Assembly (NCBI GenBank): GCA_963754315.1
Contig: CAVWFS010000019.1
Span: forward strand, 800,001-864,000
DNA from: an uncultured Candidatus Rokubacteria bacterium
Lineage (GTDB): Bacteria > Methylomirabilota > Methylomirabilia > Rokubacteriales > CSP1-6
Direction of reading: 5' to 3'
DNA: 64,000 nt
Shown here: positions 3,724-56,029 of the stretch, in pieces
Layout of the letters: the number at the start of each line of letters is the position of its first letter
How positions within the stretch are numbered: the stretch's first letter is position 1
The notes under the pieces: generated by a model
What the model was told of the DNA's origin: nothing
The model's database searches: none
What the model saw: the letters and a program-made list of their open reading frames with translations, nothing else
Program-made: the position numbers and the translations under genes

Positions 3724-3972
3724 AATTCGAGGGGCGTCACGGGTCCCCCGGGACGGCCCGAGCGTTGGGGGGTTTGGGGGGCCTGTTCGGGGCCCCCACG
3801 TGGAGCGTGAATTCGAGGGGCGTCACGGGTCCCCCGGGACGTCCCGAGCGTTGGGGGGTTTGGGGGGCCTGTTCGGGGCCCCCACGTGGAGCGTGAATTC
3901 GAGGGGCGTCACGGGTCCCCCGGGACGTCCCGAGCGTTGGGGGGTTTGGGGGGCCTGTTCGGGGCCCCCCAT
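3724..3972 (+). repeat. Tandem array, about 3 copies of an 86-bp structured GC-rich unit
   Basis: AATTCGAGGGGCGTCACGGG recurs at 3724, 3810 and 3896. Copies 1 and 2 differ at one position. Each unit has two hairpins and a G6-TTT-G6 tract. Confidence 0.95.
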
Positions 3973-3991
3973 ATTCAACAGGAGGAACACA

Positions 3992-4396
3992 ATGCCCACA
4001 GGTGCTCGGAAGTGGAGACTCTGTGCCGTACTCGCCTCGATGATCGTGGTCGTGGGCGGATGCGCCGCCATGCGCAAATCGGAGGTCGACACCCAGGAAC
4101 AGCTGCTATCGGCGGCCGGCTTTCAGATGAAGCTGGCTGACAGCCCCCAGAAGCTCACGCACCTGCAGACGTTGACCTCCCAGAAACTGGTGCCGCACAC
4201 GCGGGACGGCAAGGTGTACTACGTGTACGCCGATCCCGAGTTCTGCAAGTGCATGTTCGTTGGCAACGACGCCGCGTACCAGAAATACCAGGACCTCGCC
4301 CTCAAAGAGAAGCTCTCGCAGGAACGCCTGAACGCGGCCGCCATGAACGAGAACGCCGCGATGAACTGGGGCATGTGGGGACCTTACTGGTGGTGA
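3992..4396 (+). CDS. Putative lipoprotein (paralog 1)
   Basis: AGGAGG RBS at 3980, lipobox-like VGGC, CKC motif, Trp-rich C-terminus (NWGMWGPYWW). Confidence 0.8.
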   Translation: MPTGARKWRLCAVLASMIVVVGGCAAMRKSEVDTQEQLLSAAGFQMKLADSPQKLTHLQTLTSQKLVPHTRDGKVYYVYADPEFCKCMFVGNDAAYQKYQDLALKEKLSQERLNAAAMNENAAMNWGMWGPYWW

Positions 4397-4786
4397 GGAA
4401 GATCGCACGTAGCGGGAGCGGCCCTGCTGAGCCTCGTGGTGTTGCTCGGCGCCTGTGCAAGCGCCGCGCGGCAGGACGCCAGCGAGATCGAACCGCTGCT
4501 GTTGGCGGCCGGCTTCAAGAAGCGCGTCGCCGACACGCCGGAGAAGCTCGCCCACCTTCGAGCATTACCGGCCCTCAAGATGGTGCCCCAGCAGTACAAG
4601 GACTCCTACCTCTATGTCCTCGCCGATCCAGAGGGCTGTCGCTGCATGTATGTGGGCAACGAGCAGGCCTTCGAGCAATACGAAGCCCTAGCCATTCGGC
4701 ACACCATGGCCCGGGACAGCATCCAGCGCGCCGGCGGAGAGGCGACGCTGAACTGGGATGCGTGGGGACCGTCCTTCTGGCCGTAA
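4393..4786 (+). CDS. Putative lipoprotein (paralog 2); probable GTG start at 4393 with a 1-nt indel near 4408
   Basis: Lipobox LGAC; clearly homologous to the upstream protein (LLxAAGF..ADxPxKLxHL..YVxADPE.CxCMxVGN..NWxxWGP). The annotated ORF starts at 4436 and lacks the charged n-region supplied by GTG AGG AAG at 4393. Confidence 0.75.
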
Positions 4787-4875
4787 GCGCGCACGACGAG
4801 TACCATCTCAGATTCCACAAACCACCGGCGCCTAGGGGGTACTGACGCCGCGGCCGGAAAGTATCTGGGCTACGC

Positions 4876-4909
4876 TGGGGAGCGCCCCGAATACCCGAGA
4901 CGCTCCCCA
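4876..4909 (-). terminator. Hairpin between convergent genes
   Basis: TGGGGAGCG / CGCTCCCCA 9-bp stem, extendable with G-U pairs on the minus strand; no U-tract. Confidence 0.4.
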
Positions 4910-4953
4910 CCAATCGCGCTCACCGCTGACGTAAAACCGTCTGGGCCGACTGC

Positions 4954-6417
4954 TTACTTGGCTTTGGCGGCCCACTCCGGGTGGTACTCAATTCCGATCT
5001 GCTTCATCTCGTCTAGCTTCTCGCCCCAGAAGGCCTTCTGCTTGTCGCGGCCGCGCCGCTCGGTCACCTTGTCCCACTCCTTGGCGGCCGCTTCCAGGGC
5101 GTCCTTGGGCGATTTCCGCTTCGCCAGAGCCTCCGTGATCTCGAAGGAGAGCTTCCGCTGGTACTCGTCGGCGGCGGGGATCACGGGGTCGGGTACCACC
5201 AAGGGGAACGTCTTCTCGATGGCGTCAAGGTACTCCCCGGCTCCCGGGAAGTCCTTTCGGAACTTCTCCGAACGGAAATGCGAGATCCGCCACGGATCCA
5301 TGATCGTCTTGGGATCCATCACGATCTTCAGGCTCTGATCAGGCAGCGAGATGAACTCCAACACTTTCATGGTGGCCTCTTTCTTGCCGGAGTACTTGGA
5401 GACCGCCATGGCCCGGCCGGGGGTGATCGCCGGGCGGTGGATAATCTTGCCGTCGATCTCGGCGCCGGGGACAAGCCCAAAACCCGCCTTGCCGACGATG
5501 AGGGACTCCTTCGCGTTTCCTACGCGCTTGCCGGTGCTCGTCCACGAGTAGAGGAGCGGGACCTCCCCCTTGATCAGCATCGTCTTCGGTTCCTCCGACT
5601 CGAAGAGGAGGACGCCGGGCGGATAGTACGGCATGGTCCGAACCATCTCCTCCAGGGCTCGGAGGCCAGCCGCCGTGTTGATGAGCGGCTTCATCTCCGG
5701 GTCGAAGTACTGGCCGCCGTAGGAGAAGAAACGCTGTCGCCACCAGTAGTACGAGTAGCCGCTGCCGCTCGGCTTGTAGGAGGCCCCCGCCCCGAACAGC
5801 TTGCTCGCGGAGCCGTCCCAGCCCCACCCGTTGAAGAACTCGGCCTGGTCGTCCCACTGCTTCCACGTCTTCGGCGCCGCCAGGTCATAGGCGTACTTGG
5901 CCTTGAACTTGGTGCGGTTGTCCGGACGCTCGAAGGCCGTCTTGTTCCAGAACAGGATGTGGACATCACCGTCGTAGGGCATGCTCACCATCTTGCCGTT
6001 GTGGCGCAGCATGAGCTTCTTGTACACGTCGGCGATGTCGTCCATGTAGAACTCGAGCTTCAGCTTCTGGATCCAGGGTTCCAGCGGCTCGAAGTGGCGG
6101 CCGTAGTCGGGCATGTTGGAGGGTCCGAACATCACGAGGTCCCACGGGCTCTGGCCGCCATTGAATTCCAGCAGGGTCTTGGCCACGAAGGCGTCGGCCG
6201 GGATCACCTCCGTCTCGATCTTGATCCCCAGCTTGTCGTAGAGATCCTTCTCCACCAGGCTGAGCGAGTACTTGACGTACTCCGCGTTGACCACGGCCCG
6301 GATGGTGGTCCCCTCGTAGGGTCGGGCCGCACCCACGTCCCGGACGGGCAGGATTCCGGACGTCACCAGGCCCAGGAGAACGACTGCCACGAACGACACG
6401 AGCGCGAACCTCTTCAT
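4954..6417 (-). CDS. Carbohydrate-type ABC transporter substrate-binding protein
   Basis: Signal peptide; MPYDGDVHILFWNK, PKTWKQW and other SBP family 1 patterns. Confidence 0.88.
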   Translation of the reverse strand: MKRFALVSFVAVVLLGLVTSGILPVRDVGAARPYEGTTIRAVVNAEYVKYSLSLVEKDLYDKLGIKIETEVIPADAFVAKTLLEFNGGQSPWDLVMFGPSNMPDYGRHFEPLEPWIQKLKLEFYMDDIADVYKKLMLRHNGKMVSMPYDGDVHILFWNKTAFERPDNRTKFKAKYAYDLAAPKTWKQWDDQAEFFNGWGWDGSASKLFGAGASYKPSGSGYSYYWWRQRFFSYGGQYFDPEMKPLINTAAGLRALEEMVRTMPYYPPGVLLFESEEPKTMLIKGEVPLLYSWTSTGKRVGNAKESLIVGKAGFGLVPGAEIDGKIIHRPAITPGRAMAVSKYSGKKEATMKVLEFISLPDQSLKIVMDPKTIMDPWRISHFRSEKFRKDFPGAGEYLDAIEKTFPLVVPDPVIPAADEYQRKLSFEITEALAKRKSPKDALEAAAKEWDKVTERRGRDKQKAFWGEKLDEMKQIGIEYHPEWAAKAK

Positions 6418-6443
6418 CAAGAACCTCCTTGGCTGACAGCGGA

Positions 6444-7327
6444 TCATCCCTTGGTACCGCCTAGAGCGAGTCCCTTGACCAGGTAGCGCTGCAGGAGAAA
6501 GGCGACCGCGAAGGCGGGGATGACCCCCAGCACGACCGAGGCCGCGGCCTCGCCGTAGAAGGCGTCGGTACCGCCGGTGGTGAAGGACGTCACCAGCACC
6601 ATCATGGTCTTGGTCTCGATACCGGTCAAAACAATGGCAAACAGGAATTCGTTCCAGGTGGCGATGAAGGCGAACAGCGCCACCACCGCCAGCCCCGGCG
6701 CCACGATGGGGACGACCACCTGACCAGCGCCCCCAGCCGCGAGCAGCCGTCGATCTGGGCCGCTTCCTCGATTTCTACGGGAAAGTCGCGCAAGAATCCC
6801 ACCATCAGCCAGACGGCGAAAGGAATGTAGGTGACCGTGTAGAGGATGATGAGCCCCAGGTAGCTGTTGGTGAGGCCGATGGCCCGGTACATCAGATAGA
6901 TGGGAATGATCAGAGCAATGGCCGGGAGCATGCGCAGCACGAGGAGGAAGACACTGAGGAAGCCGCCCCCGAAACGCCAGCGCGCGATGCTGTAGGCGGT
7001 GGGCAGACTGACCACCAGCGCGGCGATCATGCTGAGCGACGCGATGACCAGGCTGTTGGAGAAATACCGCAGGCCGTTGGAGTTGGTGAACAGCCGCACA
7101 TAATGCGCGAGGGAGGGCTGGTCGGGAATCCACACCGGAGGATAGGCAAAGAAGTCGTCGTTGCCCTTCAGGGACGTGGTGACGATCCAGAAGAACGGAC
7201 CGAGGAAAAAGACGAGGGCGAGAGCCAGGGCGCCGTAGGTCAACGCGTTCCCGATCCAGCGCTGCACCCGGTAGCGCTTCGCGCGGCGCGGCCGAACGCC
7301 CGCGGTCTCGACGGCAACAACGCTCAT
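6444..7327 (-). CDS. Carbohydrate ABC permease (MalG-like), apparent frameshift near 6720
   Basis: EAA motif (EIEEAAQIDGCSR) in frame 6626..7600; VVVPIVAPG..WNEFLFA continues in frame 6444..7133. One G is missing in GTCAGG|TGGTC. Confidence 0.85.
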
Positions 7328-8229
7328 GCCGCCCGTGCCTCTCGGGCGCGCGAGACGCGGAGGAAGATGACCGTGAGGATGAGCACGCCGAAGATGATCA
7401 CGTACGAGAGGGCAGACGCATAGCTCATCCGGAAGTCCTTGAAGCCGGACAGGTAGGTGTTGAAGGCCACCGTTTCGGTGGCCCCTCCCGGCCCGCCGAA
7501 GGTCATGATGAAGATGAGTCCGAAAAGCTTGGTGAGGTCGATCATGCGGATCATTACGGCCACTGCCATGGTGAACTTGAGCAGAGGCAGGGTAATCCAC
7601 CAGAAGCTCTGCCAGGGAGAGGCCCCGTCCGCCTTGGCCGCCTGGTACAGCTCCTGGGGAATCGCCTGCAGGCCAGCCAGCATGACCAGCATCATGAACG
7701 GTGTGTTGTGCCAGACGTCGACCAGGATGACCGTGAACATGGCCAGCAGGGGGCTGGAGAACCAGTCGAAGTAGACATCGAGGATACCAAGCTCACGCCC
7801 CAGGTTGTTGATGGCGCCGTACTTCACCCCGAACATCATGCGCCAGGCCATGCCCGCCATCACCGGCGACACCATGGGCGGGATGGCCAGGAGGGCGGTC
7901 AGGATCGGACGCGCGCGGATGGGACGATTGAGAAGGAGGGCGATGCCGAGCCCCAGCAACAGCTCAACTACCAGGGCGGGCCCGATGATGGCGCCGGTGG
8001 TCCAGATCGAGCTCCGGAAGCGCTCATCCCGGAACAGCGCCTCGGAGTAATTGTCCAGGCCCACGAACTCGGCCCCGGGTCCCACCGACAGATCGTAGTT
8101 CTGCAGGGAGAGAACAAAGGAGAAGGCCAGCGGAAACACGATGACGATGGCGATGAGGATCAAGGAGGGCGAGGCAAAGGCAAGCGGTTCCCACTGCTTT
8201 CGCTTCAGGGCTAGAGCGGCCGTCCGCAT
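7324..8229 (-). CDS. Carbohydrate ABC permease (MalF-like)
   Basis: FVGLDNY, DVWHNTPF, ELYQAAKADGAS, TFGGPG motifs. Confidence 0.9.
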   Translation of the reverse strand: MRTAALALKRKQWEPLAFASPSLILIAIVIVFPLAFSFVLSLQNYDLSVGPGAEFVGLDNYSEALFRDERFRSSIWTTGAIIGPALVVELLLGLGIALLLNRPIRARPILTALLAIPPMVSPVMAGMAWRMMFGVKYGAINNLGRELGILDVYFDWFSSPLLAMFTVILVDVWHNTPFMMLVMLAGLQAIPQELYQAAKADGASPWQSFWWITLPLLKFTMAVAVMIRMIDLTKLFGLIFIMTFGGPGGATETVAFNTYLSGFKDFRMSYASALSYVIIFGVLILTVIFLRVSRAREARAA

Positions 8230-8359
8230 CGACCCTCCTCGTGATCCGCACTGGCGAAAATCCGGCGTTGGTGCCAGGAGCAGACCACACGACGACGAGA
8301 CCTGTCAAGGCGACGGGAAGATTGACAGCGCCCGAACTCTCGGGCCAGTGTCTATCGAC

Positions 8360-10763
8360 GTGACCACGCGGACGATCGGCGCGCGCATCCTCCGTCACGA
8401 AGATCCTCGCCTGCTGCGCGGACACGGTTGCTTCGTGGACGACGTCTCCCTAGCCGGACTGCTGCACGCGGCCTGCGTGCGGAGCCCACACGCGCGGGCC
8501 CGCATCGTCGCCATCGACGCCTCCCGTGCTCGACGGCTCTCCGGTGTTCATCTGATTCTCACCGCTCCCGACCTCGGGACGATGAACGGAGCCCGGACCG
8601 CTTCTCATCCCCCATCCCGCGCTCACCGCTCCCCGTACCCAGCGCCCCCTCGCGCACGACGAGGTCCGCTTCGTCGGCGAGGCGGTGGCGTTCATCGTGG
8701 CCGATACCCGCTACCGCGCCGAGGATGCGGCCGCTCTCATCGAGGTCGAGTACGCGCCGCGGCCTGCGGTCGTCGATGTCGAAACGGCGCTCCACGAGGA
8801 CAGTCCCCGCGTTCACGCGGACGTGCCCGCCAACCGAGCCGCCCGCTTTCCTCAGACGGTCGGGGACCCTGAGCGCGCATGGCGGGAAGCAGCGCGGATC
8901 CTCCGCGAGCGTCTCGTCATCGAACGAAGCTGCGGCAGTCCCCTCGAAGGCCGCGGTGTGGTGGCCGAATACGACCTGCGCACTGGTGTCCTCCGGGTGT
9001 GGGCATCGACCCAGGCGCCCCTCACGATCCGCAATGGCCTCGCGCACATGTTTGGCCTTCCGGAGTTCAACGTCGAGGTCATCGCCCCCGACATCGGCGG
9101 GGGGTTCGGCACCAAGATCATGCTCTTCTATCCGGAAGAGATCCTCGTGCCCTTCGCGGCGATGCGACTGGGGCGACCGGTGAAGTGGACGGAAGACCGG
9201 CGCGAGCATCTGATCGCCGCCAACCAGGAACGCGGTCAGATCCATCACGTGGAGGTGGCGGTCGATGGCGAGGGGCGCATTCTCGCCCTGCGCGACCGTT
9301 TTTTGCACGACACGGGGGCATATACCCCCTACGGCATCGTGGTCCCTATCGTGACCGCCGCCCAGCTCCCCGGCCCCTACCGGCTGCGCAACTATCACGT
9401 CGAGTTCGAGGTGGTCTACACGAACACGGTGAGTGTCAGCCCCTATCGCGGAGCCGGACGCCCCCACGGGGCCTTTGTGATGGAACGCGTCATGGGTCTC
9501 ATCGCGCGCGAGTTCGGCCTGGAGCCGGCCGAGGTGCGTCGCCGTAACCTCATTCAGCCTCACGAGTTTCCCTGGGACGTTGGGCTCACGTTCCAGGACG
9601 GCAGTCCGACCCGGTATGACAGCGGGGACTACCCGGCAGGACTCGAGATGGCCCTCGACATGATCGGGCTCCCAGCCTTTCGCGCACATCAAGCCGAGGC
9701 CCGCCGCGAGGGCCGTCATCTCGGACTCGGCCTGGCCTGCTATGTCGAGGGCACCGGCATCGGCCCCTACGAGGGCGCGCACGTCCGTGTGGAGCCGAGC
9801 GGACGAGTCTTCGTCGCCACCGGTCTCACCACACAGGGTCAGGGCCACTACACCACCTTTGCCCAGATCGCGGCCAGCACCCTGGGTTGCGACCCGAGTC
9901 AAGTGACAGTCGTCACGGGCGACACCCGCAAGTTCAACTGGGGAGCGGGAACATTCGCGAGCCGGGCCCTGGTGACAAGCGGGAACGCTATCCACGCGGC
10001 CGCTCAGAAGGTGCGGGACAAGGTTCTCCGGTTGGCCGCGAGCCTGCTCGAGGCCTCGCCCCACGACCTCGAGCTCGAGGATGGATGGGTGCGCGTCAAG
10101 GGCGCGCCGGACAAAGCGCTGACCTTGGGCGCGCTCGCCACTGTGGCCAATCCCATCCGCTACGCCTACGGCCAGCGGTCTTCCGAGACCGCGCTCCGCC
10201 TGGTCAAGGCGCGCGGGGCCGCCGTCCTGGCCTCCGGCGAGGAGCCCGGCCTCGAGGCCACCGGATATTTCGCGCCCTCCCAGTCCACCTTCGCCAGCGG
10301 CTGCCACGCATGCATCGTGGAAGTCGACGTGGAGACAGGTCAGCTCCAGCTGCTGCGCTACGTCGTTCAGCACGATTGCGGTGTCATGGTGAATCCCACC
10401 ATCGTGGAGGGCCAGATCCGCGGTGGCGTGGCTCAGGGCATCGGCGGTGCGTTCTACGAGAAGATCGTCTACGACGACGGCGGCCAGCCCCTCACCGCCA
10501 GCTACATGGACTTCCTGATGCCGACGGCCATGGAGATTCCGAGCATCGAGATCGGCCACCTGGAGACGCCGTCTCCGCTCAACCCACTCGGGATCAAGGG
10601 CGTCGGCGAGGCGGGTGCCATACCGGGTCCGGCGCTGGTGGCAGAGGCGATCGAAGACGCCCTGGCCCCGTTCGCGCGTCCGCATCCGGGAAATGCCTCT
10701 CAATCCCAGCCGCCTGCGCGCGCTCATCAGGCAAGCGCGCGGGGAGAAGGAACGCAGCCATGA
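8360..10763 (+). CDS. Xanthine dehydrogenase-family molybdopterin-binding large subunit (CoxL/CutL-like), apparent frameshifts near 8589 and 10672
   Basis: IGARILRHEDPRLLRG..DD, RSPHARA, GGGFGTK, PYRGAGRP, QGQGH, GTFASR, KGVGEAG motifs. Confidence 0.88.
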
Positions 10764-11729
10764 ACTTCAAGCTGGTGATGCTTCCGAACCAGACCACTGT
10801 CACCCGCCAGTGGGCCGCCCGCATCGCCGACGCGGGGACGGGCGCGCGCGTGGTGGTGGCGGAAACGCGCGGGGACGCTGCCCGAGAGATCGTCGATGCC
10901 GAGGCGGCCTTCGGAACCCTGCCCGCCGATCTGCTGGCTACCGCGCGTGCTCTACGCTGGCTCCAGGCTCCGCAGGCGGCACCACCGCCCGGCTACTACT
11001 ACGCCGAGCTGATCGCCCATCCCGTTGTCGTGACAAATTTCCGCGAGATCTACAACGACCATATCGCGGCTCACATCATGGCCTTCGTCCTCGCCTTCGC
11101 CCGTGACTTCCATCGCTACCTTCCCCAGCAGCTCCGGCGCGAGTGGCGTCCGGCGCCGCTCGACACGCGTGTGCTCCATCTACCGGAGACGACCGCGTTG
11201 ATCCTGGGAGTAGGCGGCATCGGCGCCGAGACGGCGCGACTCGCGGCCGCCTTCGGCATGCGCGTCATCGGGGTCGACGCGCGGCGGCCGGCGCCGCCGC
11301 CCGGGGTGACCGAGTGGCACCGGCCCGAGGCGCTGGACACGTTGCTGCCCCGTGCCGACTTCGTCATCATGACCGTGCCCCACACGCCGGAGACGGAAGG
11401 GATGATGAACCGGGCACGTCTGCGCCGCATGAAGCCCTCCGCCTTCCTCATCAACATCGGCCGCGGCATGACCGTGAAGCTCGACGACCTGGTGGACGCC
11501 TTGCGTGCGGGGGAACTGGCGGGGGCGGGGCTCGATGTGTTCGAAGCAGGAACCCCTCCCGGCGGACCATCCACTGTGGACCATGCCGGGTGTCCTGATC
11601 ACACCCCACACCGCCGGGTTCGGACCCTACCTCGACGAGCGGCGCTTCGCGATCCTCCTCGAGAATTGCCGTCACTTCGCGGCCGGTGAGCCGCTGCGCA
11701 ACGTGGTCGACAAGCGCCGCTGGTTCTGA
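10760..11729 (+). CDS. D-2-hydroxyacid dehydrogenase, apparent frameshift near 11545
   Basis: ILGVGGIG, LINIGRG, GAGLDVFE; EPLPADHPLW..ITPH continues in frame 11505..11729. Confidence 0.88.
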
Positions 11730-11780
11730 GGCGTCGAGGGGCACCAAGCCCCAGCTGTGCCGTATACGATTACGGCATTC

Positions 11781-11793
11781 ATGCTGGTACAAT
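11781..11793 (+). promoter_or_regulatory. Possible extended -10 promoter for a leaderless vapB
   Basis: TGgTACAAT ends about 6 nt before the vapB ATG (11800); no clear SD. Confidence 0.45.
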
Positions 11794-11799
11794 CAGGGC

Positions 11800-12003
11800 A
11801 TGGCCACCCAGAAGGTCACCGTGCATCTCGACCGCGATCTCCTGCGCCGAGCCCAGGCCCGCACCGGCCAGGGAGTCTCGGCCACCATCCGGCACGGTCT
11901 CGAGCTGGTGGCCGCCCGTCAGGCCTACGAGCGCCTGCGTGCGCTTCGGGGGAAGGTGACCTTCTCCCTCGATCTCCAGGCGCTCCGCCAAGACCGTCGT
12001 TGA
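11800..12003 (+). CDS. vapB: VapB-like antitoxin
   Basis: 67 aa, KVTVHLDRDLL ribbon-helix-helix-like start; TTGA overlap with the PIN gene. Confidence 0.75.
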   Translation: MATQKVTVHLDRDLLRRAQARTGQGVSATIRHGLELVAARQAYERLRALRGKVTFSLDLQALRQDRR

Positions 12004-12392
12004 TTGCCCTCGACACCAGCTCGTTGATTGCCTACCTCTCGGGGGCCGAAGGGCCGGACGTGGAAGCCACCGGCATCGCGCTCGAACACCAGCAGGCGAT
12101 TCTGCCCCCCGTCGTGCTTTCCGAGCTCCTGAGCGATCCCGAGCTGGACAGGCGGGTGAAGGAGCTCTTCGTCCACCTTCCCTTGCTCGAAATCCTAGAC
12201 GGCTACTGGGAGCGAGCCGGGCTCCTCCGCGCCCGAGCGCTCGCGCACGGGCGCCGAGCGCGTTTGGCCGATACCCTCATCGCCCAGTCCTGTCTCGATC
12301 ATGAGGTGGAGCTCGTGACGCGTGACCGTGACTTCCAGTTCTTCGTCAAGGCGGGCGGCTTGAAGCTGTTCGGAGCTCGAGTCCGGAGGTAG
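12000..12392 (+). CDS. vapC: VapC PIN-domain toxin
   Basis: IALDTS..., VLSEL, ADTLIAQ, LVTRDRDF acidic PIN motifs. Confidence 0.88.
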   Translation: MIALDTSSLIAYLSGAEGPDVEATGIALEHQQAILPPVVLSELLSDPELDRRVKELFVHLPLLEILDGYWERAGLLRARALAHGRRARLADTLIAQSCLDHEVELVTRDRDFQFFVKAGGLKLFGARVRR

Positions 12393-12395
12393 ATC

Positions 12396-12935
12396 ATGCT
12401 CAGGAAGATTCGTCGCATCGTGACCGGCCACAACGCGCAGGGAAAGTCGGTGATCGTCTCCGACGCGCCGTCGCCGCACGTCCTCGCCCTCCTCAACGAT
12501 CCGCCATTCGGATTGACCGACCTCTGGGTCACCTCGAGCTCGCCGGCTGATAACTCCGGCCACGCCGACGGCGCCGCTCGATCGACCATCACCCTGGAGC
12601 CGCCCCAAGGGGGAACGATCTTCCGGGTGGTTGAGTTTCCTCCTGACCAGGCGACCGTCGGCAAGCTTGACCGCAAGAAGCTCTTCGAGGCCATGCACGC
12701 CGGCGAGGCTATGGACCACGAGGGCGCCCGGCATCCGGGGATGCACAAGACGACCACAGTGGACTACGCCATCGTGCTCTCCGGCGAGATCTACGCGATG
12801 ATGGACGAGGGCGAGACCTTGATGAAAGCGGGAGACTGCCTGGTACAACGGGGAACGAACCACGCCTGGAGCAACCGCAGCCAGGCGCCGTGCCTGGTTG
12901 CCTTCGTCCTCGTTTCAGCGAGCCCCCTGGCCTAG
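12396..12935 (+). CDS. Cupin domain protein
   Basis: RRIVTGH, MHKTTTVDYAIVLSGE, GDCLVQRGTNHAWSN. Confidence 0.88.
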   Translation: MLRKIRRIVTGHNAQGKSVIVSDAPSPHVLALLNDPPFGLTDLWVTSSSPADNSGHADGAARSTITLEPPQGGTIFRVVEFPPDQATVGKLDRKKLFEAMHAGEAMDHEGARHPGMHKTTTVDYAIVLSGEIYAMMDEGETLMKAGDCLVQRGTNHAWSNRSQAPCLVAFVLVSASPLA

Positions 12936-12947
12936 CGTCCTGTCGCA

Positions 12948-13013
12948 GGCGCCCCGGTGGACCCGGGGCGCCGTGAACATCGGGGGTTAGGGGGATGAAG
13001 TTGGCCCCCCATC
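12948..13013 (+). repeat. Dispersed copy of the 86-bp-family structured element
   Basis: GGCGCCCCGG-loop-CCGGGGCGCC stem, then GGGGG-TTA-GGGGG...CCCCCCAT; colinear with the 3724 unit. Confidence 0.8.
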
Positions 13014-13019
13014 GCTCAA

Positions 13020-13949
13020 TCAATCGAACGCTTTGCGGAGGGCGCCCGCCACCTCGTCGAGGGCGGCCTTGGCAGAGTCAAGAATTCGCGTCATGCGGAA
13101 GAACCCGTGGAACATGCCCGGATAGCGAACGTGGTTGACGGCGACTCCCGCATCGCGCAACCGCGCGGCATAGGCCTCACCCTCATCCCGCAGGGGATCG
13201 CAGCCGGCCGTGATCACAAGAGCCGGCGGCAGCCCGCCCAGGTTCGTCGCGCGTAACGGCGAAGCATAGGGATCCTGTCCCTGCTCTTCGCGGGCGAGGT
13301 AGTGGCCAAAGAACCAGCGCATACCCTCCCGCGTCAGCACATAGCCGGTGGCGTTTTCGAGATAGGACGGCGTGTCCAAGTTGACGTCGGTCACCGGATA
13401 GACCAGAGCCTGGAAAACAGGCACTGGCGTACGCCGATCGCGCGCCATGAGGGAGACCACGGTGGCGAGGTTCCCGCCGGCGCTGTCGCCCCCGACCGCC
13501 ACCCGCCGTGGATCGATCCCAAGTCGAGACGCGTTGGCCGTCACCCACCGAAGGCCGGCATACGCATCCTCGACGGCCACCGGGTAACGGTGCTCCGGGG
13601 CTAGCCGGTAGTCAACGCTGGCGACCACGCAGCGGGCCGCATTGGTGAGCGATCGACAGATGCCGTCGTGAGTCTCGAGATCGCCGATCACCCAGCCGCC
13701 GCCGTGATAGAAGACGAGCGCCGGATGTGGCGCCGAGCCCGCTGGCGCATAGACGCGGACGGTGATCTCGCCGCCGGCGACAGGCACTTGATGATCGGCC
13801 ACGGCGGTTACGTCTTCCACCGGACCGAGGGCGGCCGTACGACTGCGCATGCTCTCTCTCGCCTCGGCCGGCGTGGACTGCTCCACCGGCTTGAGGTTGA
13901 GGGCAGCCATGGCATCGACAACCTTCTGCGCTTGAGGATCGAGCGGCAT
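13020..13949 (-). CDS. Alpha/beta hydrolase, HSL-family esterase/lipase
   Basis: HGGGW, GDSAGG, DPLRDEG, HGF catalytic motifs; AGGAGG RBS. Confidence 0.93.
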   Translation of the reverse strand: MPLDPQAQKVVDAMAALNLKPVEQSTPAEARESMRSRTAALGPVEDVTAVADHQVPVAGGEITVRVYAPAGSAPHPALVFYHGGGWVIGDLETHDGICRSLTNAARCVVASVDYRLAPEHRYPVAVEDAYAGLRWVTANASRLGIDPRRVAVGGDSAGGNLATVVSLMARDRRTPVPVFQALVYPVTDVNLDTPSYLENATGYVLTREGMRWFFGHYLAREEQGQDPYASPLRATNLGGLPPALVITAGCDPLRDEGEAYAARLRDAGVAVNHVRYPGMFHGFFRMTRILDSAKAALDEVAGALRKAFD

Positions 13950-13966
13950 GGTGGCCTCCTATGGGA

Positions 13967-14036
13967 GATGGGGGGTCCGAACTTCACCCCCCAAACCCCC
14001 CACGTTCGGGGCGCCCCGGGGGACCCGGGGCGCCCC
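13967..14036 (-). repeat. Dispersed copy of the 86-bp-family element, inverted relative to 12948-13013
   Basis: GATGGGGGG..AACTTCACCCCCCAAACCCCCC..GGGGCGCCCCGGG-GGA-CCCGGGGCGCCCC; closely matches the reverse complement of 12948-13013. Confidence 0.88.
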
Positions 14037-14146
14037 TCTGTAACAGTCGCACTTCTATAACAGTCGCACCTCTATAGCAGTCCCACCTCTATAACAGCCA
14101 CACCTCTAAACAGGCGCCCCTCTAACAGTGGCCAGGTTACAAGAGG
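14031..14146. repeat. Six degenerate 15-17-bp direct repeats (CGCACCTCTATAACAGT) plus one partial inverted copy
   Basis: Units at 14031, 14048, 14065, 14082, 14099, 14115; inverted GTTACAAGAGG at 14136. Confidence 0.85.
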
Positions 14147-14246
14147 AGGCTGATTTTACGTCATCGGCGGTGGTGAAGCCTAGTGCGATGGCGCGGTGGT
14201 GCTGGCGCTTGCCGGGCGCGGGGTGGGCCGTTACTCTTTACGGTCA

Positions 14247-15239
14247 ATGCGACACCTACGGCTCGGCCGGACCGGGTTGTCGGTTTCTCGGCTTTGTCTC
14301 GGCACCATGACCTTTGGGCTGCAGTGCGACGAGCCCACTTCGATCGGCATCCTGGACCGGGCGGCGGCCGGCGGCATCACGTTCCTGGACACCTCTGACG
14401 TCTATCCGCTGGGCGGCAGTCTGCAGACGGTCGGCCGCACGGAGGAGATCCTTGGACGGTGGCTCGCCGACAGGCGCCACGACTTCGTGGTCGCCACCAA
14501 ATGCTTCGGAGCCACCAGTGCTCGTCCGTGGGATCGTGGCAACTCCCGCAAGCACATCCTCGACGCCATCGAGGGTTCGCTGCGCCGGCTGCGCACCGAC
14601 TATGTGGACCTCTACCAGCTCCATCATCCCGATCCCCACACGCCTCTCGAGGAGTCGCTGCGGGCATTGGACGACATCGTCCGGGCGGGGAAGGCTCGCT
14701 ATATCGGCTGCTCCAACTTCCACGCGTATCAGGTAGCGCGCGCCCTCGGCAAGAGCGAGACGCACGGGCTGGCATCGTTCGCCTCCGTGCAGCCGCGCTA
14801 CAACCTGCTGTTCCGACAGATCGAGCGCGAGCTGCTCCCTCTCTGCCAGGAAGAGGGCATCGGTGTGATTCCGTACAACCCGCTGGCAGGAGGGTTCCTC
14901 TCCGGCAAGCATCGGGCGGAGACGGGGCCCACGGCGGGAACTCGCTTCACCCTGGGCAACGCGGCCCAACGTTACCAGGAGCGATACTGGCACGAGCGCG
15001 AGTTTGCAACCGTCGCTGCCCTCAGCCCTCTCGCCGCTGAGGCCGGTATATCAGTGGTTCAGATGGCCGTGGGGTGGGTCCTGGCGCACCCATCGGTTAC
15101 TGCCCCCATCATCGGGGCGAGCCGGCCTGACCAGCTCGACGAAGTGCTTGCGGCCGTCGACAAGGGGATCCCGACCGACCTTAAGACGCGGCTGGACGAG
15201 CTGACCCTCGAGTACCGCTGGGGCGACGATCCCCGCTGA
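14247..15239 (+). CDS. Aldo/keto reductase
   Basis: LGRTGLSVSRLCLGTMTFG, DTSDVY, ATK, LRTDYVDLYQLH, GCSN, PIIGAS. Confidence 0.93.
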   Translation: MRHLRLGRTGLSVSRLCLGTMTFGLQCDEPTSIGILDRAAAGGITFLDTSDVYPLGGSLQTVGRTEEILGRWLADRRHDFVVATKCFGATSARPWDRGNSRKHILDAIEGSLRRLRTDYVDLYQLHHPDPHTPLEESLRALDDIVRAGKARYIGCSNFHAYQVARALGKSETHGLASFASVQPRYNLLFRQIERELLPLCQEEGIGVIPYNPLAGGFLSGKHRAETGPTAGTRFTLGNAAQRYQERYWHEREFATVAALSPLAAEAGISVVQMAVGWVLAHPSVTAPIIGASRPDQLDEVLAAVDKGIPTDLKTRLDELTLEYRWGDDPR

Positions 15240-15281
15240 AATCTCGCCGCGAATCGAGCCCGCGCCTGGGACGATGGGCGG

Positions 15282-16097
15282 GTGCAGCTCTTCGACCGGA
15301 AGTTCGGCGCCCAATTTCTCGCCGGAGTGCCCTCCCAACCGGGTGTCTACCGTCTGTACGACGAGGCCGGAGCCCTCCTCTATGTCGGCAAGGCTCGCGA
15401 CCTCCGGCGCCGGCTGGCGCAGTACCGAACAACTCGACGAACCAAGAAGGATCGCAAGCGCCGACGGCTGGTGAGGTCGGCCGCGCGGATCGTCTGGGAG
15501 GCCTGCGCATCGGAGCTGGACGCCGCGCTCGACGAGATCCGGCTGATCCAGACGCTGCGTCCGCGAGAGAACGTTGCCGGCGCCTTTTCGTTCCTTTACC
15601 CGTTCATCGGGATCCGCCTCGATGGCCAGGAAACCGACTTCTGCCTCACGACTTCTCCCGAAGCGTTCCCGTCATTCGACCTGTACGGGGCCTTTCGCTC
15701 GCGCGAGGTGACGGGCGAGGCGTTCTTCTCGTTGATGCGGCTGTTACGCTTCATCGGACATCCGAACTACCCACGCCGCAAGATGCGGAGCCGAATAGCC
15801 CCACACTCGTACGTGGTGGGATTTCGTCGTCTGCCGGCGTCATGGCCTGCTCTGTGGAGCCGTGTGCTCCGAGGGGCTTCCCGCGAAGGGCTCGAGCAAC
15901 TCTCGCTGACCCTCCTCGAGCACGCGGGAGCCCGCGCCCGGAGCACCGAAATCCAGGCCGACTTGCGGGCCGTCGCGCGCTTTTTCGACGAGGAGGCTTC
16001 GGCCCTGGCCGCTGCTATCGTCGCGGCGGGCTACTCGCGCTATCCCGTGCCCCAGCAGGAGCGCGATGTACTCTTCCTTCATTTTCGGGGCCGGTAG
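15282..16097 (+). CDS. GIY-YIG nuclease (UvrC N-terminal-like) with unrecognised C-terminal region
   Basis: PSQPGVYRLYD..LLYVGKARDLRRRLAQY; E...I...RPREN. Confidence 0.8.
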   Translation: MQLFDRKFGAQFLAGVPSQPGVYRLYDEAGALLYVGKARDLRRRLAQYRTTRRTKKDRKRRRLVRSAARIVWEACASELDAALDEIRLIQTLRPRENVAGAFSFLYPFIGIRLDGQETDFCLTTSPEAFPSFDLYGAFRSREVTGEAFFSLMRLLRFIGHPNYPRRKMRSRIAPHSYVVGFRRLPASWPALWSRVLRGASREGLEQLSLTLLEHAGARARSTEIQADLRAVARFFDEEASALAAAIVAAGYSRYPVPQQERDVLFLHFRGR

Positions 16098-16098
16098 T

Positions 16099-17080
16099 TC
16101 ATACGACCTCGAACTTCTGGAATGTGTGACAGTCGGCAGGAACATGCCCGCGGCTCACGGAAAACGTCCAGGTGACCTCGCTGACATACACGGCGCCACG
16201 CGAGTCCACAGCCAGGCCGTGCGGCGCCGCGAAGCTGCCGGGCGCGCAGGCGTCGGCACTGCCCCAGCGGGCCAGGACCTGTCCCGTCCTTGTCGTAAAC
16301 GCTCACCCGACCGTAGCGCGCCTCGTGGATCGGCCCGTGGCGCTGGGAAGTCTGACCCTGGTGCCACCACAACTCCGAGACGTAGGCCCGTCCCTTTGCG
16401 TCAAAGACAAGATGGGTCGGCCGCTGGGTGTCGGTCCACTCGCTCAGATACTCACCATCCGGGCTGAAGATCTGGATGCGGTCGTTCTCACGGTCGCATA
16501 CGAAGATGCGTCCATCGGCAGCGGCCGCGATGCCGTGCGGGAGGTGGAACTGACCTGGACCAGTGCCCGAGACTCCCCAGGACTGCTTCAGCTCACCGGT
16601 CGGGGAGAAGCGATGCACTCGGCAATTGCCATAGCCGTCGGAGATGTAGAGGTCTCCTTTGGGGCCGATGGCCAGATTGGTGGGGCGATTGAAAGGGCCC
16701 GCCGGCCTCGGAATTTTGATCGAGTCCTTGCCGTCGTAGCCGGTATCCGAAGGCGTGTTCATGGTACCCAAGGTCATCAAGAGCTTTCCGTCCGGCGTGA
16801 ACTTGCGCACGGTGTGGTTGCCGTCGTCCGTGCAATAGACCATGTTGTCGGGTCCGACCGTGATGCCGTGGGTTCGGTAGGTGAACTCGCCCTCGCCCCA
16901 GGAGCGCAGGAACTTCCCCTCGGGGCTGTAGACGATGATCGGATGATCACCACGGCAAATCAAGAAGACGCGATCCTCCGAGTCGACCGCCACCCCGGCC
17001 ACATCACGATGCACGTAGTCGCGCGGGAGCTGCTCCCACCCTTCGATCACCTGGTATTTCAACGCACTCGTCAGTGCCAT
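16099..17080 (-). CDS. NHL-repeat beta-propeller (PAL/peptidyl-alpha-hydroxyglycine lyase-like), apparent frameshift near 16284
   Basis: Repeats HGITVG..NHTVRKF, FNRPTNLA..DGYGNCRVHRF, FHLPHGIA..DRENDRIQIF. The shifted frame gives QVLARWG..FAAPHGLAVDS..FQKFEVV*. Confidence 0.85.
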
Positions 17081-17099
17081 GCTCACCCTCCTCAGCGAA

Positions 17100-17993
17100 T
17101 CACAATTTAACCTGAACGCCGGCCAGCTGCTCCAAGACCTTGATAATCGCGCTTCCGTCTTCCTTGTTGAGCCCGGCCGCGCGCGCCATCTGGTAGACCT
17201 GTTGACTGATGTTGGCAAGGAGGAGAGGCATCCCCAGTTGCTTGGCAAACGCCGTCTCCAGCTCCTGATCCTTGTACGAGATGTCCACCGTTCCTCCCGG
17301 GGCAAAATCTCGGGCCATGATCCGGGGCACCCGTGTCTCGAAGGCGAAGCTCGTACCCGTGCTCACCCGCACGACATCATAGATCGTCTGCGGATCGAGC
17401 CCCGCCTTCACCCCGAGGACGAGCGCCTCCGCCACCGCCACCGTGTTGACCTGGACCAGCATGTTGTTGACCAGCTTCATGGCCAGCCCCTGGCCGATGC
17501 CGCCCACGTGGAAGATGTTCTTGCCCATTGCCTGGAAGAGGTCGCGGCAGGCTTCGACCGCGTCCCGCGCCCCTCCCGCGATGATCGACAGCTCGCCCGA
17601 GGCGGCACGTCCCGTTCCCCCGCTGACGGGAGCGTCGAGCATGGCCACACCCCGCGTGGCCAACCGGTCGTGCAGTCGACGCGCGGCAAAGGGGTCGATG
17701 GTGCTCATGCAAATCACGATGTGCCCGGCGCTGGCACCGGCCACGATGCCCCGGTCGCCGGCGATGACCGACTCCGCTTGCGAAGTCGTCTCGACCATGC
17801 AGATGGTCCGCCCGGCCGCCTGAGCCACCTGCTCCGGCGAATCGGCCGCCACGGCCCCTCGCTCGCGCAGGGCCGACAGCTTGGTCGAATCGACGTCGTG
17901 CACGACCAGCGAGAACCCGTGCCGGGCGAGATTCAGGGCCATCGGCCGGCCCATGTTTCCAAGCCCGATGAAGCCTACCTTCGCAGCTGGCAT
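17100..17993 (-). CDS. Beta-hydroxyacid dehydrogenase (3-hydroxyisobutyrate DH / tartronate semialdehyde reductase family)
   Basis: GFIGLGNMG, DAPVSGG, KLVNN motifs. Confidence 0.9.
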   Translation of the reverse strand: MPAAKVGFIGLGNMGRPMALNLARHGFSLVVHDVDSTKLSALRERGAVAADSPEQVAQAAGRTICMVETTSQAESVIAGDRGIVAGASAGHIVICMSTIDPFAARRLHDRLATRGVAMLDAPVSGGTGRAASGELSIIAGGARDAVEACRDLFQAMGKNIFHVGGIGQGLAMKLVNNMLVQVNTVAVAEALVLGVKAGLDPQTIYDVVRVSTGTSFAFETRVPRIMARDFAPGGTVDISYKDQELETAFAKQLGMPLLLANISQQVYQMARAAGLNKEDGSAIIKVLEQLAGVQVKL

Positions 17994-18010
17994 CGCGTTG
18001 TCCTTTCAAA

Positions 18011-18497
18011 GTCGGGGGGAGCGGCGCCGCTCCCCCCGACACCCCCCACCGGTTAGCCGCGCCGCCCGTCCCGCTCACCCTCCGGATCCCGCCACCTCAC
18101 GAGCGGCGCCGCTCCCCCCGACACCCCCCACCGGTTAGCCGCGCCGCCCGTCCCGCTCACCCTCCGGATCCCGCCACCTCACGAGCGGCGCCGCTCCCCC
18201 CGACACCCCCCACCGGTTAGCCGCGCCGCCCGTCCCGCTCACCCTCCGGATCCCGCCACCTCACGAGCGGCGCCGCTCCCCCCGACACCCCCCACCGGTT
18301 AGCCGCGCCGCCCGTCCCGCTCACCCTCCGGATCCCGCCACCTCACGAGCGGCGCCGCTCCCCCCGACACCCCCCACCGGTTAGCCGCGCCGCCCGTCCC
18401 GCTCACCCTCCGGATCCCGCCACCTCACGAGCGGCGCCGCTCCCCCCGACACCCCCCACCGGTTAGCCGCGCCGCCCGTCCCGCTCACCCTCCGGAT
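18011..18497. repeat. Tandem array of about 5.8 identical 82-bp C-rich units, starting with a perfect 30-bp palindrome
   Basis: GAGCGGCGCCGCTC recurs at 18019, 18101, 18183, 18265, 18347, 18429. 18011-18040 (GTCGGGGGGAGCGGCGCCGCTCCCCCCGAC) is its own reverse complement. Confidence 0.97.
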
Positions 18498-41427: not shown

Positions 41428-41850
41428 TTAGTGGTTGTCCCCGCGGTGGGGGCGATGACCGTGGTGCTTGTAGCCGTGCTTGACCTTCCAGTGGCCCGGG
41501 GGCACCCACTTGTGCGTGTGGTAGATGACCGGTCGGGGCTGGACATACACCACCGCCGGCGGCCGGGGCGATGCGTACACGAACGCCGGGGGCGGTACGT
41601 ACACGAACGCCGGGGGCGGCGCATACACGACGGGTGGAGGCGCCACGACCACAGGACGGTGGACCACCACCGGCGCTGGCCGGCCGAAGAAGATGTCGTG
41701 GAGGACCGTCTCGCCCCGCACGAGCTGGTTGAAGACGGCAAACGCCCCAAGCCCCAGCGCCGCATCGGTGGCAGCCCCGGCCCGGGCGGGCTGGGCCGTC
41801 GCCACGAGCGTCGTGCCGCTGACGAGCACTGCCGCGAGCAATTTTTTCAT
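41428..41850 (-). CDS. Exported proline-rich protein
   Basis: Signal peptide ..PARA, repeated VY(A/V)PPP, WVPPGHW, His-rich tail; GGAGG RBS. Confidence 0.75.
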   Translation of the reverse strand: MKKLLAAVLVSGTTLVATAQPARAGAATDAALGLGAFAVFNQLVRGETVLHDIFFGRPAPVVVHRPVVVAPPPVVYAPPPAFVYVPPPAFVYASPRPPAVVYVQPRPVIYHTHKWVPPGHWKVKHGYKHHGHRPHRGDNH

Positions 41851-43574: not shown

Positions 43575-43592
43575 TAATGCCGTAGGAATAGT

Positions 43593-43664
43593 GAGGGGGC
43601 TCTTCAGTGCCCCCATGCCCGCTTGACCGCTCACGGCGCCCCGGGCTCGAGATCGGGACGCCCC
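43593..43664 (-). repeat. Degenerate copy of the 86-bp-family element between convergent genes
   Basis: GGGGGC..GCCCCC hairpin then TCACGGCGCCCCGGG, a 15-mer identical to the reverse complement of the 12948 copy. Confidence 0.6.
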
Positions 43665-47642: not shown

Positions 47643-47654
47643 CGTGTCTCCAGA

Positions 47655-47742
47655 TGGTGCGAGAGGGGGGAGTCGAACCCCCAAGGGCTTTTGGCCCACT
47701 GGATCCTAAGTCCAGCGCGTCTGCCAGTTTCGCCACTCTCGC
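47655..47742 (-). tRNA. tRNA-Leu(TAG)
   Basis: GCGAGAG acceptor stem, CTGGA-CTTAGGA-TCCAG anticodon arm, long variable arm, GGTTCGACTCC, encoded CCA. Confidence 0.97.
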
Positions 47743-55869: not shown

Positions 55870-55925
55870 CTTTGGCGGCGGCGATGCCCTTTGGCGGCGG
55901 CGGTGCCCTTTGGCGGCGCGATGCC
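55870..55925. repeat. Three 18-19-bp direct repeats CTTTGGCGGCGGCGRTGCC
   Basis: Units at 55870, 55889, 55908. Confidence 0.85.
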
Positions 55926-56029
55926 CTAACGTGACCTCCGCGACTCAGAACTGGTCACCCACGGGAGCTATCGTCAAGAGTTGTGGATTGAGTGAGTTCG
56001 GGGCCGGCTGGCCCGGGCTCCTCAACACG

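Follow-up and report, generated by a model that had tools for sequence, protein, structure and literature searches.

Why does the same arrangement of two G-runs and one C-run stand at the same short distance from the Shine-Dalgarno sequence (SD) of three unrelated genes? The arrangement is found in a 64,000-nt stretch of a Rokubacteria genome (contig CAVWFS010000019.1, positions 800,001 to 864,000), referred to here as the window. An earlier note on this DNA had described it as docked exactly 9 nt before the SDs of a lipoprotein, an esterase, and a dehydrogenase gene. It had proposed either an RNA element acting through alternative pairing or a G-quadruplex, or a REP/MITE-like element with a strict position relative to ribosome-binding sites (RBSs). 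The letters were rechecked, and the three sites and their 9-nt gap are exactly as had been written. On the plus strand, the C-run ends at 3970 and AGGAGG begins at 3980; on the minus strand, it ends at 13970 before the esterase gene and at 18014 before the dehydrogenase gene. The label lipoprotein is that of the note, and Pfam gave no match for the 134-aa ORF at 3992. The pattern of G-run, G-run, and C-run produced 11 overlapping matches at six sites in the window, compared with a shuffle mean of 0.07 and a shuffle maximum of 3.

A two-hairpin repeat that differs between relatives

The flagged motif is only the 3' hairpin, or right-hand end, of a longer repeat with two hairpins (Table 1). At 3724, the site is a three-copy array of an 86-nt unit. 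In its terminal copy, the CGA(G/A)CG motif is followed by the first G-run and then by hairpin 2, in which the second G-run is paired with C6. The array at the dehydrogenase site belongs to a sister subfamily (family B) and not to family A. The 17-nt tandem beside the esterase copy is a local re-duplication that decays outward. Two further copies, at 12948 and 43593, had been placed between convergent genes, and they do lie there. The C-run of the first ends 9 nt short of the stop codon of the esterase gene on the other strand, and the second is degenerate.

Table 1. Copies of the repeat and adjoining features in the window
Position	Strand	Feature	Details
3724..3895	+	Two internal 86-nt family A array units	Each with a shortened C-run plus linker, without A/T tail
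3896..3970	+	Terminal family A copy	Hairpin 1 about 3903-3932, then invariant CGA(G/A)CG motif
3971..3979	+	A/T-rich 9-nt tail	
3980..4396	+	Host SD and 134-aa ORF	SD 3980-3985; ORF from 3992
12948..13019	+	Family A copy	Between convergent cupin and esterase genes; C-run end 13010, 9 nt from esterase stop codon 13020-13022 (minus strand)
13961..14045	-	Family A copy and tail	Esterase 5' region; SD 13960-13955
14031..14124	-	5.6 tandem copies of a 17-nt unit	Overlap the 5' end of the 13961..14045 copy
18005..18497	-	Family B array, 5.8 identical 82-nt units	Before a 3-hydroxyisobutyrate-dehydrogenase-type gene; full hairpin (18014-18047) and tail in last unit only, ahead of AGGA 18004-18001
43592..43664	-	Degenerate family A-like copy (E 3.4)	Between convergent genes; C-run end faces carboxyl transferase stop

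The genome under study (G000) holds 246 copies in 147 loci, and its reversed sequence holds none. The element is ~100 nt long (87-118 nt, mostly 96-102) and has no coding capacity. Hundreds of copies occur in Rokubacteria genomes, the relative G021 has 72 in 378 kb, and the repeat is confined to Rokubacteria relatives. Arrays at multi-copy loci run head-to-tail on one strand in 60 of 61 cases. All four orientations relative to neighboring genes are present in this genome, and the genes next to copies have no function in common. Genes were called with a home-made codon model (6,244 genes, 84% coding) whose stops are reliable and whose starts are less so; the 10 of 147 loci that fall inside called genes are probably miscalls. 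An Rfam search of the window brought only a tRNA to gathering score, and the repeat was left without a family, in agreement with the first impression that it matches no named one. In the fragmented assembly of the congener G117, the repeat often lies at contig ends. The idea that decayed 5' copies are a sequencing artefact was rejected on the basis of assemblies rather than reads, with like remnants present in other assemblies.

The element is polymorphic between relatives. Among 23 distinct syntenic junctions of the congener G165 with this genome, read by eye, it was missing in 16, in another place or orientation in three, and matching in four. Congeners often lack a copy at the orthologous site and nevertheless keep the SD. 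At the 3992 locus, G117 has the SD without the repeat and G165 has one copy. The esterase copy is missing from both congeners, both of which keep the SD, and the family B array is likewise missing from both.

An IS1182 terminal repeat and a target duplication

Where does such a repeat come from? Evidence comes from intact copies in relatives, which start with an IS1182 terminal inverted repeat (the leader) and carry a TCA or TGA direct repeat on both sides. The order observed there is the 3-nt direct repeat, the 17-bp terminal repeat, hairpin 1, a G-run that is left unpaired, hairpin 2, a tail of 6 nt or 2 nt, and the same 3 nt again. The leader is identical at 17 of 17 positions to the ends of two insertion sequence (IS) loci (L339 and L285). 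The leader serves as inverted repeat to an element of 1,550 bp, whose 449-aa ORF scores 345.7 bits against a cut-off of 270 for IS1182 (NF033551). Leader variants of the short elements mirror variants of the IS repeat, and family B has its leader and TCA end in common with family A.

A 3-nt direct repeat flanks six of the seven IS copies that have both ends, and in five of the six it is TCA or TGA. Short elements with TCA on the left have TCA on the right in 50 of 75 cases and TGA never, and those with TGA on the left have TGA on the right in three of six (Fisher p 2.3e-4 for the association, with 39 of 120 leaders dropped from the test for having no C-run in range). Most leader loci were picked by the left TCA in the search pattern; among unselected leaders, it was present in 10 of 27 (G021) and 6 of 9 (G165). 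Further evidence of target duplication comes from a filled site (L282) whose empty orthologue in G000 has a single TCA. Eleven of the 120 leaders stand immediately after the tail of another copy. Of the 50 copies with sufficient flanking sequence, 40 have a right TCA that forms the stop codon of a convergent ORF; in the two TGA cases, the repeat is an upstream stop. Of the 2,520 CTCAG/CTGAG sites in the non-coding DNA of G000, only 626 are stop codons, so the target word and purifying selection alone are insufficient for this 80%.

The family is old in this genome: its terminal repeat is eroded, its tail is A-rich, and its arrays are decaying from the 5' side. A recognizable leader is kept in none of 131 copies in G000 and in 5 of 64 in G165, and the exact leader is present in 15 of 201 genomes. 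The terminal-repeat relic in G000 is weak and non-random (score 12.94, shuffle maximum 12.22), and a relic is detectable in G165 and G021 as well. The three window copies have AAC, CAT, and GAA at +7 to +9, not TCA, with no visible target duplication.

We consider it probable, at somewhat better than even odds, that the motif forms the right end of a MITE-like element, ~100 nt long and non-coding, that derives from an IS1182-family insertion sequence. Of the two options first offered, the REP/MITE-like one is upheld by the hundreds of copies, the differences between congeners in presence and orientation, the IS1182 repeat, and the target duplication. The element is probably a parasite that the genome tolerates and not a translation switch. 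An IS1182 DDE transposase would move it in trans into C-TCA-G or C-TGA-G sites. TGA is a stop codon, and the copies are seen to sit on stops; insertions there may survive selection because duplication of TGA would restore the stop and leave the protein intact. Each insertion restores a target at its own end, and this yields the head-to-tail arrays. The right end counts against this derivation. The reverse complement of 19 distinct right ends has no GTGAA core, and no short element is closed by an inverted leader. The inverted repeat therefore stands at one end only, and cutting by a DDE transposase at the other is unexplained.

An unlikely alternative, though the best placed of those considered, is that the repeat is an older, independent REP-like replicator moved by another enzyme. 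IS1182 would target it or its neighborhood, and one sublineage would have captured an IS end. In its favor, intact leaders are missing from most copies in most genomes, including G000 and G165; two different internal modules (A and B) stand behind the same leader; one IS1182 copy (L402) lies within the hairpin 1 loop; and IS1272, of the IS1182 family, is reported to target hairpins (PMC4923244). However, the whole unit is enclosed by matching 3-nt repeats, the leader variants track those of the IS, the relic is found in G000, G165, and G021, and no Y1, TnpB, or reverse-transcriptase partner was found.

Position relative to stop codons, starts, and SDs

Of 141 loci, 82 have the C-run end facing an opposite-strand stop codon, at a median of 6 nt, and 59 have it facing a start. 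In 25 of the 59 start-facing loci, the C-run is followed by an SD, 24 times at 2-11 nt and once at 23 nt, with a mode at 8-9 (eight cases at offset 8, six at offset 9). In the other 34, the co-oriented gene downstream lacks an SD within 30 nt. Hence, the distance of exactly 9 nt is not borne out by the genome-wide histogram, in which offsets fall mostly at 2-11. A strict RBS position is also unsupported because stop codons are the commoner neighbor and the SD exists in sites without the element. SD-like words are enriched after the C-run, at offsets 3-11 in 24 of 141 terminal copies vs. 6 of 141 beyond the opposite end (background, a start within 13 nt, 3.7%).

Under an IS1182 origin, the 9-nt spacing would arise because a 6-nt tail plus the 3-nt duplication puts host sequence 9 nt past the C-run, where in the three cases that sequence is an SD; the A/T-rich stretch ahead of the SD of the 3992 ORF would match this tail plus duplication in length. 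SD docking itself counts against the IS1182-derived model, being common in this genome and rare in intact copies of relatives (6 of 57 on a loose word test, with one or more of the six being coding sequence). The docking in divergent regions, where the C-run end is at the RBS in 11 of 12, downstream of apparently intact promoters, is not fully explained. An outward promoter in the A/T tail was considered and rejected: it would lie too close to the SD, and the promoters of the host genes are retained upstream.

One possibility, put forward tentatively, is a one-ended MITE that has a single IS1182 repeat and a hairpin as its second end, read by the transposase as a structure on one strand. Re-insertion at the right end and collapse between direct repeats may then walk the C-run end, as a ratchet, to the first essential base, be it a stop, SD, start, -35 box, or tRNA end. 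Such positions would then be marked by the repeat throughout a whole bacterial family, and real stops may draw insertions more strongly than the target word explains.

Could some copies have been co-opted? Copies in 5' untranslated regions would be kept by the SD for mRNA stabilization or as an A-rich standby site, and those at stops would tune termination or decay as REPs do. The divergent regions point this way, as do the A-rich tail (69% A+T vs. 37% before SDs genome-wide) and the conservation of structure by compensatory change. REPs within 15 nt of a stop can reduce translation, according to earlier work cited in PMC12306157. We nevertheless regard co-option as improbable. Orthologous genes usually lack a copy and keep the SD, and the adjoining genes share no function. 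Wobble pairs are biased to one strand (64 vs. 5), and this G.U bias favors the G-first strand in all four orientation classes; even where that strand is antisense to both neighbors, it is still 15 vs. 2. The fold is therefore tied to the element and not to host mRNA.

A single supported fold

Covariation links the base just ahead of the second G-run to the one just behind the C-run (the two pair in 89 of 91, compared with at most 79 in shuffles). The same test for the first G-run gave 45, with a shuffle mean of 39.5 and a maximum of 49, and thus no covariation signal; G165 offered too little variation for the test. The second G-run is the pairing partner of the C-run, and a single fold is supported. 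A switch in which the two G-runs compete for the C-run, or form a G-quadruplex, to gate the SD is accordingly very unlikely, although both runs are nearly invariant (alignment A1) and the first can still pair, at a cost of 6-13 kcal/mol, once the second is forced open. Enabling the G-quadruplex option left the predicted folds of the three sites unchanged, neither state needs an SD, and most copies have none nearby. With all four orientations present and one supported fold, the element is not like a cis-regulatory RNA or riboswitch. Neither copy in 12800-14400 was called as an intrinsic terminator, and the tail is A-rich, not a U-run.

Search for the mobilizing enzyme

No IS1182 transposase was found in G000 (95.6% complete), and this missing partner counts against the IS1182-derived model. 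Close homologues (E 1e-20) are present in 13 of 159 family genomes, without clean co-distribution with the element. The RAYT/Y1 partner suggested as a check in the earlier note did not turn up. Spread by an HUH transposase (RAYT or IS200/IS605) or by a reverse transcriptase is highly improbable: the one-strand wobble bias and polar arrays would fit a single-stranded intermediate, and the subterminal hairpin ~10 nt from a fixed tetranucleotide may resemble IS200/IS605 right ends, but Y1 is missing from G000 and nine genera (g1, g2, g6, g14, g15, g19, g20, g24, and g26) and most frequent in g7, a genus in which the element is rare, TnpB is absent from G000, reverse transcriptases are patchy (36 of 159), and the leader matches a DDE element. 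The one Y1 match in a high-copy genome (L019) has no repeat copy within the 1.8 kb of sequence covered there. An IS200/IS605 reading with guide tetranucleotides was dropped, the leader being a DDE repeat. An IS91-type Y2 partner was set aside after one weak partial match (E 3e-4), and an attC-like site because its box order was judged to depart from the consensus.

Comparison with known elements and implications

MITEPye1 of Paracoccus yeei is described as an IS1182-derived MITE 159 bp long that has an 18-bp repeat at each end, direct repeats of 4 bp, and one to three copies per chromosome (PMC11578231). As far as that description goes, the Rokubacteria element has in common with it that it is short, non-coding, and intergenic, with hairpins, an IS1182-type repeat, and short direct repeats. 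It differs in that the repeat stands at one end only, the direct repeats measure 3 bp, the copies number in the hundreds, and the tandem arrays are polar. IS1272 is reported to insert in hairpin stems with target deletion and no duplication (PMC4923244), and the far end of TnSha1 to be an imperfect repeat of 69% identity (PMC5678879). The transposase family, the affinity for hairpins, and the ability of one IS to move a unit with an imperfect far end are shared with these accounts. Unlike IS1272, the Rokubacteria IS and short elements duplicate 3 bp at TCA/TGA, and unlike both, the far end here consists of a hairpin and a tail, without a clear repeat.

High copy number, intergenic location, imperfect palindromes, clusters, and frequent proximity to stop codons are also features of REPs, BIMEs, and REPINs, as these are portrayed in PMC3733652 and PMC12306157. 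Alignment A1, in contrast, has no GTAG or CGTC tag, and there is no RAYT. The head-to-tail arrays differ from the inverted doublets of REPs so portrayed, and intact copies have an IS1182 end and a target duplication, which sets them apart from REPs.

An apparent RBS-linked RNA motif is thus accounted for, at the strength given above, as the end of a mobile element, and it cautions that a fixed spacing to an SD can arise from element geometry. If a hairpin does replace one transposon end, a DDE transposase would be acting on an unusual substrate. Rokubacteria carry the family in abundance, and it remodels the ends of their genes.

Sites in the window and the genome-wide family

The motif of the earlier note, two runs of six G followed by a run of six C, was present as described upstream of three genes (3992, 13949, and 17993), and 9 nt separated the C-run from AGGA at each of them. 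The pattern occurred at six places in the window as 11 overlapping matches, compared to a mean of 0.07 and a maximum of 3 in shuffled sequence. The motif does not stand alone. It forms the terminal part of longer repeat units of two kinds: a two-hairpin repeat at 3724, 12948, and 13949 (family A) and a sister subfamily at 17993 (family B).

Features located in the window
Position	Feature	Description
3724-3970	Repeat array	Three 86-nt units; the motif closes the third unit
12948	Repeat copy	9 nt separate the copy from a stop codon
18014	Repeat array	5.8 identical 82-nt units, sequence unlike the 3724 type; the motif closes the last unit
47658-47742 (-)	tRNA match	Lies over the first codons of called ORF 46353-47699
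41565-41630	Short tandem repeat, unrelated	Period 24
55870-55927	Short tandem repeat, unrelated	Period 19
58534-58570	Short tandem repeat, unrelated	Period 18
39289-39321	Short tandem repeat, unrelated	Period 15

A regular expression of the motif gave 165 matches in the 6.5-Mb genome. A profile built on 141 of these matches detected 246 copies with E-values up to 0.01; the reversed genome gave none with E up to 1. The copies group into 147 loci; 61 loci contain multiple copies, which lie on a single strand in 60 of the 61. Rfam contained no family that matched.

Structure of the element

The element consists of a 5' hairpin, an invariant CGA(G/A)CG motif, the first G-run, and a 3' hairpin. In 69 aligned terminal copies, taken from other Rokubacteria records as well as from this genome and two congeners, pairing held in 92% of cells and changes on both sides were found in 9 of 21 pairs. 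None of 500 shuffles reached that number, which is not a probability since the copies are related. G.U wobbles were biased to the G-first strand (64 vs 5 on the other strand in 109 copies), and the bias was common to all four gene-orientation classes. Arrays have a polarity: an upstream unit or remnant was found beside 78 of 125 terminal copies, and the number of substitutions per 100 nt climbed with distance, from 4.8 to 11.3.

Does the element act as a switch? The earlier note proposed, as one of two readings, that two G-runs compete for one C-run or form a G-quadruplex, and the results support neither. In 89 of 91 copies, the base just 5' of the second G-run can pair with the one just 3' of the C-run (78 T-A, 11 A-T), compared to a shuffle mean of 70 and maximum of 79. 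The base before the first G-run was paired in 45, which is no signal (shuffle mean 39.5, maximum 49). Copies of the congener G165 vary too little for this comparison. In predicted folds, opening the second G-run costs 6-13 kcal/mol, and allowing G-quadruplexes in the folding of the three sites left the folds unchanged. A second C-run was present within about 30 nt downstream in 12 of 125 terminal copies (3% background). On present evidence, the element is no translation switch. The first G-run is conserved, and no reason for its conservation was found. Co-option for mRNA stability or translation may still have occurred.

Position relative to genes

A terminal C-run was present at 141 of the 147 loci. 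In 82 of the 141 its end faces an opposite-strand stop codon, at a median distance of 6 nt; in the other 59 it faces a co-oriented start, at a median of 20 nt. Of these 59 start-facing loci, 25 have a Shine-Dalgarno sequence (SD) no more than 30 nt away, with offsets of 2-11 in 24 of the 25 (8 loci at offset 8, 6 at offset 9). The enrichment of SDs is real (24 of 141 vs 3.7% background), but the genome-wide spread of offsets speaks against a strict distance of 9 nt, and the link to ribosome-binding sites is not obligatory. In divergent regions, the C-run end lay within the last tenth, adjoining the ribosome-binding site, in 11 of 12 cases, a fraction that is inflated by the array's own length. 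One copy (contig C3) adjoins an apparent tRNA 3' end, as judged by eye.

Stop docking was found again in five other genera, and in G165 the stop lay at exactly +6 in 15 of 29 stop-facing copies. In 23 of 52 genes with a tail-facing stop, the tail being the bases after the C-run, the last sense base was T, vs 9% genome-wide (p 3.5e-11). A different target preference, stops supplied by the tail, or local mutation could account for this excess.

Comparison with congeners

Both congeners, G117 and G165, still have an SD-like word at the esterase and dehydrogenase genes but no copy of the element. At the deaminase-3992 junction, G117 has no copy and G165 has one. Among 23 distinct syntenic junctions compared by eye with G165 (1.6 of its 5.0 Mb), 16 were empty, 3 had the element elsewhere or reversed, and 4 matched. 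At one promoter, the element sits at the SD in this genome and against the -35 box in G165. In the rho-rpmE region, the two elements lie at opposite edges.

Near 152235 of contig C19 (minus strand; compared with stretch L132), an array parts two genes that overlap stop-to-start in G165, and the tail appears to be the source of A in a new ATG that replaces GTG. At C19:211455-211824, a six-unit array stops 6 nt short of the ATG of a gene that is presumably hrcA, while its G165 counterpart (L129) has promoter-like sequence directly before that ATG. In G165, at least three further hairpin repeat families are found at the same gene junctions (L070, L118, L151, L153), and two of them share the element's layout, with a G-run ahead of a terminal hairpin that is docked at a gene edge.

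Probable origin from an IS1182-type element

Intact copies begin with a conserved 5' leader, present in 31 of 72 copies in the high-copy relative G021, 5 of 64 in G165, and 0 of 131 in this genome. A leader search recovered 88 metagenome stretches and, of 201 genomes, matched 15, all from the host's family; the G-run module follows in at least 61 of 108 distinct contexts. The same leader forms the terminal inverted repeat of L339, a 1,550-bp element whose 449-aa ORF scored above the NCBIfam IS1182 transposase cut-off and matched DUF772 and DDE_Tnp_1_6. Six of seven IS copies with both ends had a 3-nt direct repeat, which was TCA or TGA in five; the flanks of L339 itself, TCA and TGA, are unlike. 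After 39 of 120 leaders with no C-run in range were dropped, short elements with TCA on the left had TCA on the right in 50 of 75 cases and TGA never, and those with TGA on the left had TGA on the right in 3 of 6 (p 2.3e-4 for the association). Of the 57 copies with TCA or TGA at both sides, 36 had a 6-nt tail and 21 a 2-nt tail. Among the matches listed, family B has the same leader upstream and the same TCA end.

In 40 of 50 copies with enough flank, a convergent ORF has the right TCA as its stop (codon-score test); stop codons make up 626 of the 2,520 non-coding CTCAG/CTGAG sites of this genome, far below 80%. Few intact copies are docked at an SD (6 of 57 by a loose test), yet such docking is common in this genome. 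A search for empty sites with 52 copies gave four non-repeat orthologues at 69-82% identity, and the one clear case, L282, has an empty orthologue with a single TCA in this genome.

Several variants were observed. At L402 (G196:C284), a 1,378-bp IS1182-type element lies in the 3-nt loop of family A hairpin 1 with a 3-nt duplication. Two leader-bearing copies (L287 and L308) lie in inverted orientation, with about 655 nt between them and their terminal repeats on the outside; such an arrangement could mobilise the enclosed DNA as a composite. Derivatives of about 20-50 nt (L353, L362, L320) have only the leader and a few right-end bases between two TCA repeats. In G021 (L233-L248), the hairpin 1 loop often carries one or more tandem 19-nt inserts, and another repeat adjoins the element at TCA on either side.

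Distribution among relatives

The exact pattern was found in 67 of 125 genomes of the host's family and 0 of 75 other genomes of the phylum. A covariance model detected the element in 68 of 86 family genomes, 2 of 9 in the sister family, and 0 of 45 elsewhere. All 17 named database matches were Rokuibacteriota/Methylomirabilota records, which suggests a Rokubacterium as host. G021 had 72 copies in 378 kb. Close transposase homologues occurred in only 13 of 159 family genomes, in a setting where fragmented assemblies often lose IS copies. Tallies for the exact pattern, covariance model, leader, reverse transcriptase, and transposase homologues include rows from the unpublished genomes G101, G029, and G058, and the pooled leader-bearing copies include loci L260 and L371 of G058; no claim depends on unpublished genomes alone.

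A Y1 transposase-like gene (L091-L111; frames of about 300 aa) was seen in genera g7, g13, g17, and g36. It is common where the repeat is scarce or escaped detection (in g7, 12 of 21) and may serve a different repeat family. This genome has reverse-transcriptase frames at C1:412027, C7:897156, C11:7433, and C19:554508-557845, three full (446-470 aa) and one in two pieces 3 kb apart.

Relation to known systems and proposed mechanism

The closest known system is MITEPye1 (PMC11578231), an IS1182-derived MITE of 159 bp that has repeats at both ends and 4-bp duplications. IS1272 of the same IS1182 family has hairpin targets and no duplication (PMC4923244), TnSha1 has a surrogate end 69% identical (PMC5678879), and REP families are placed close to stops (PMC3733652, PMC12306157). 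The literature search found no description of the family in Rokubacteria and, among the entries listed, no one-ended IS1182 MITE; bioRxiv 10.1101/2025.07.22.666184 yielded nothing specific. Most subscription journals and ISfinder lay outside the search, so a printed description may exist, and this IS or MITE could be listed in ISfinder or in supplementary tables.

It appears that an IS1182 transposase acting in trans would insert the unit at C-TCA-G or C-TGA-G, with the observed duplication of the central 3 nt. Insertion on a stop codon would be tolerated because the duplication restores the stop. Six tail bases and three duplicated bases would place host sequence 9 nt after the C-run, and would thus give the spacing of the earlier note wherever that sequence is an SD. 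The window copies have no TCA at +7 to +9. Copies would insert side by side because both ends recreate the target; a leader directly followed another copy's tail in 11 of 120 cases. Re-insertion together with repeat collapse at the right end may act as a ratchet, which would dock the element wherever the first essential base lies. The family appears old in this genome, given a weak leader relic (score 12.94 vs shuffle maximum 12.22), a tail of 69% A+T, and no IS1182 transposase found in a search.

The likeliest reading is a mini-element derived from IS1182 that carries a terminal repeat at one end and a hairpin at the other. It behaves as an IS1182 MITE would, and is classed as a variant because its right end is not the inverted repeat that a MITE should have. 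The repeat family is real, very abundant, and apparently undescribed so far.
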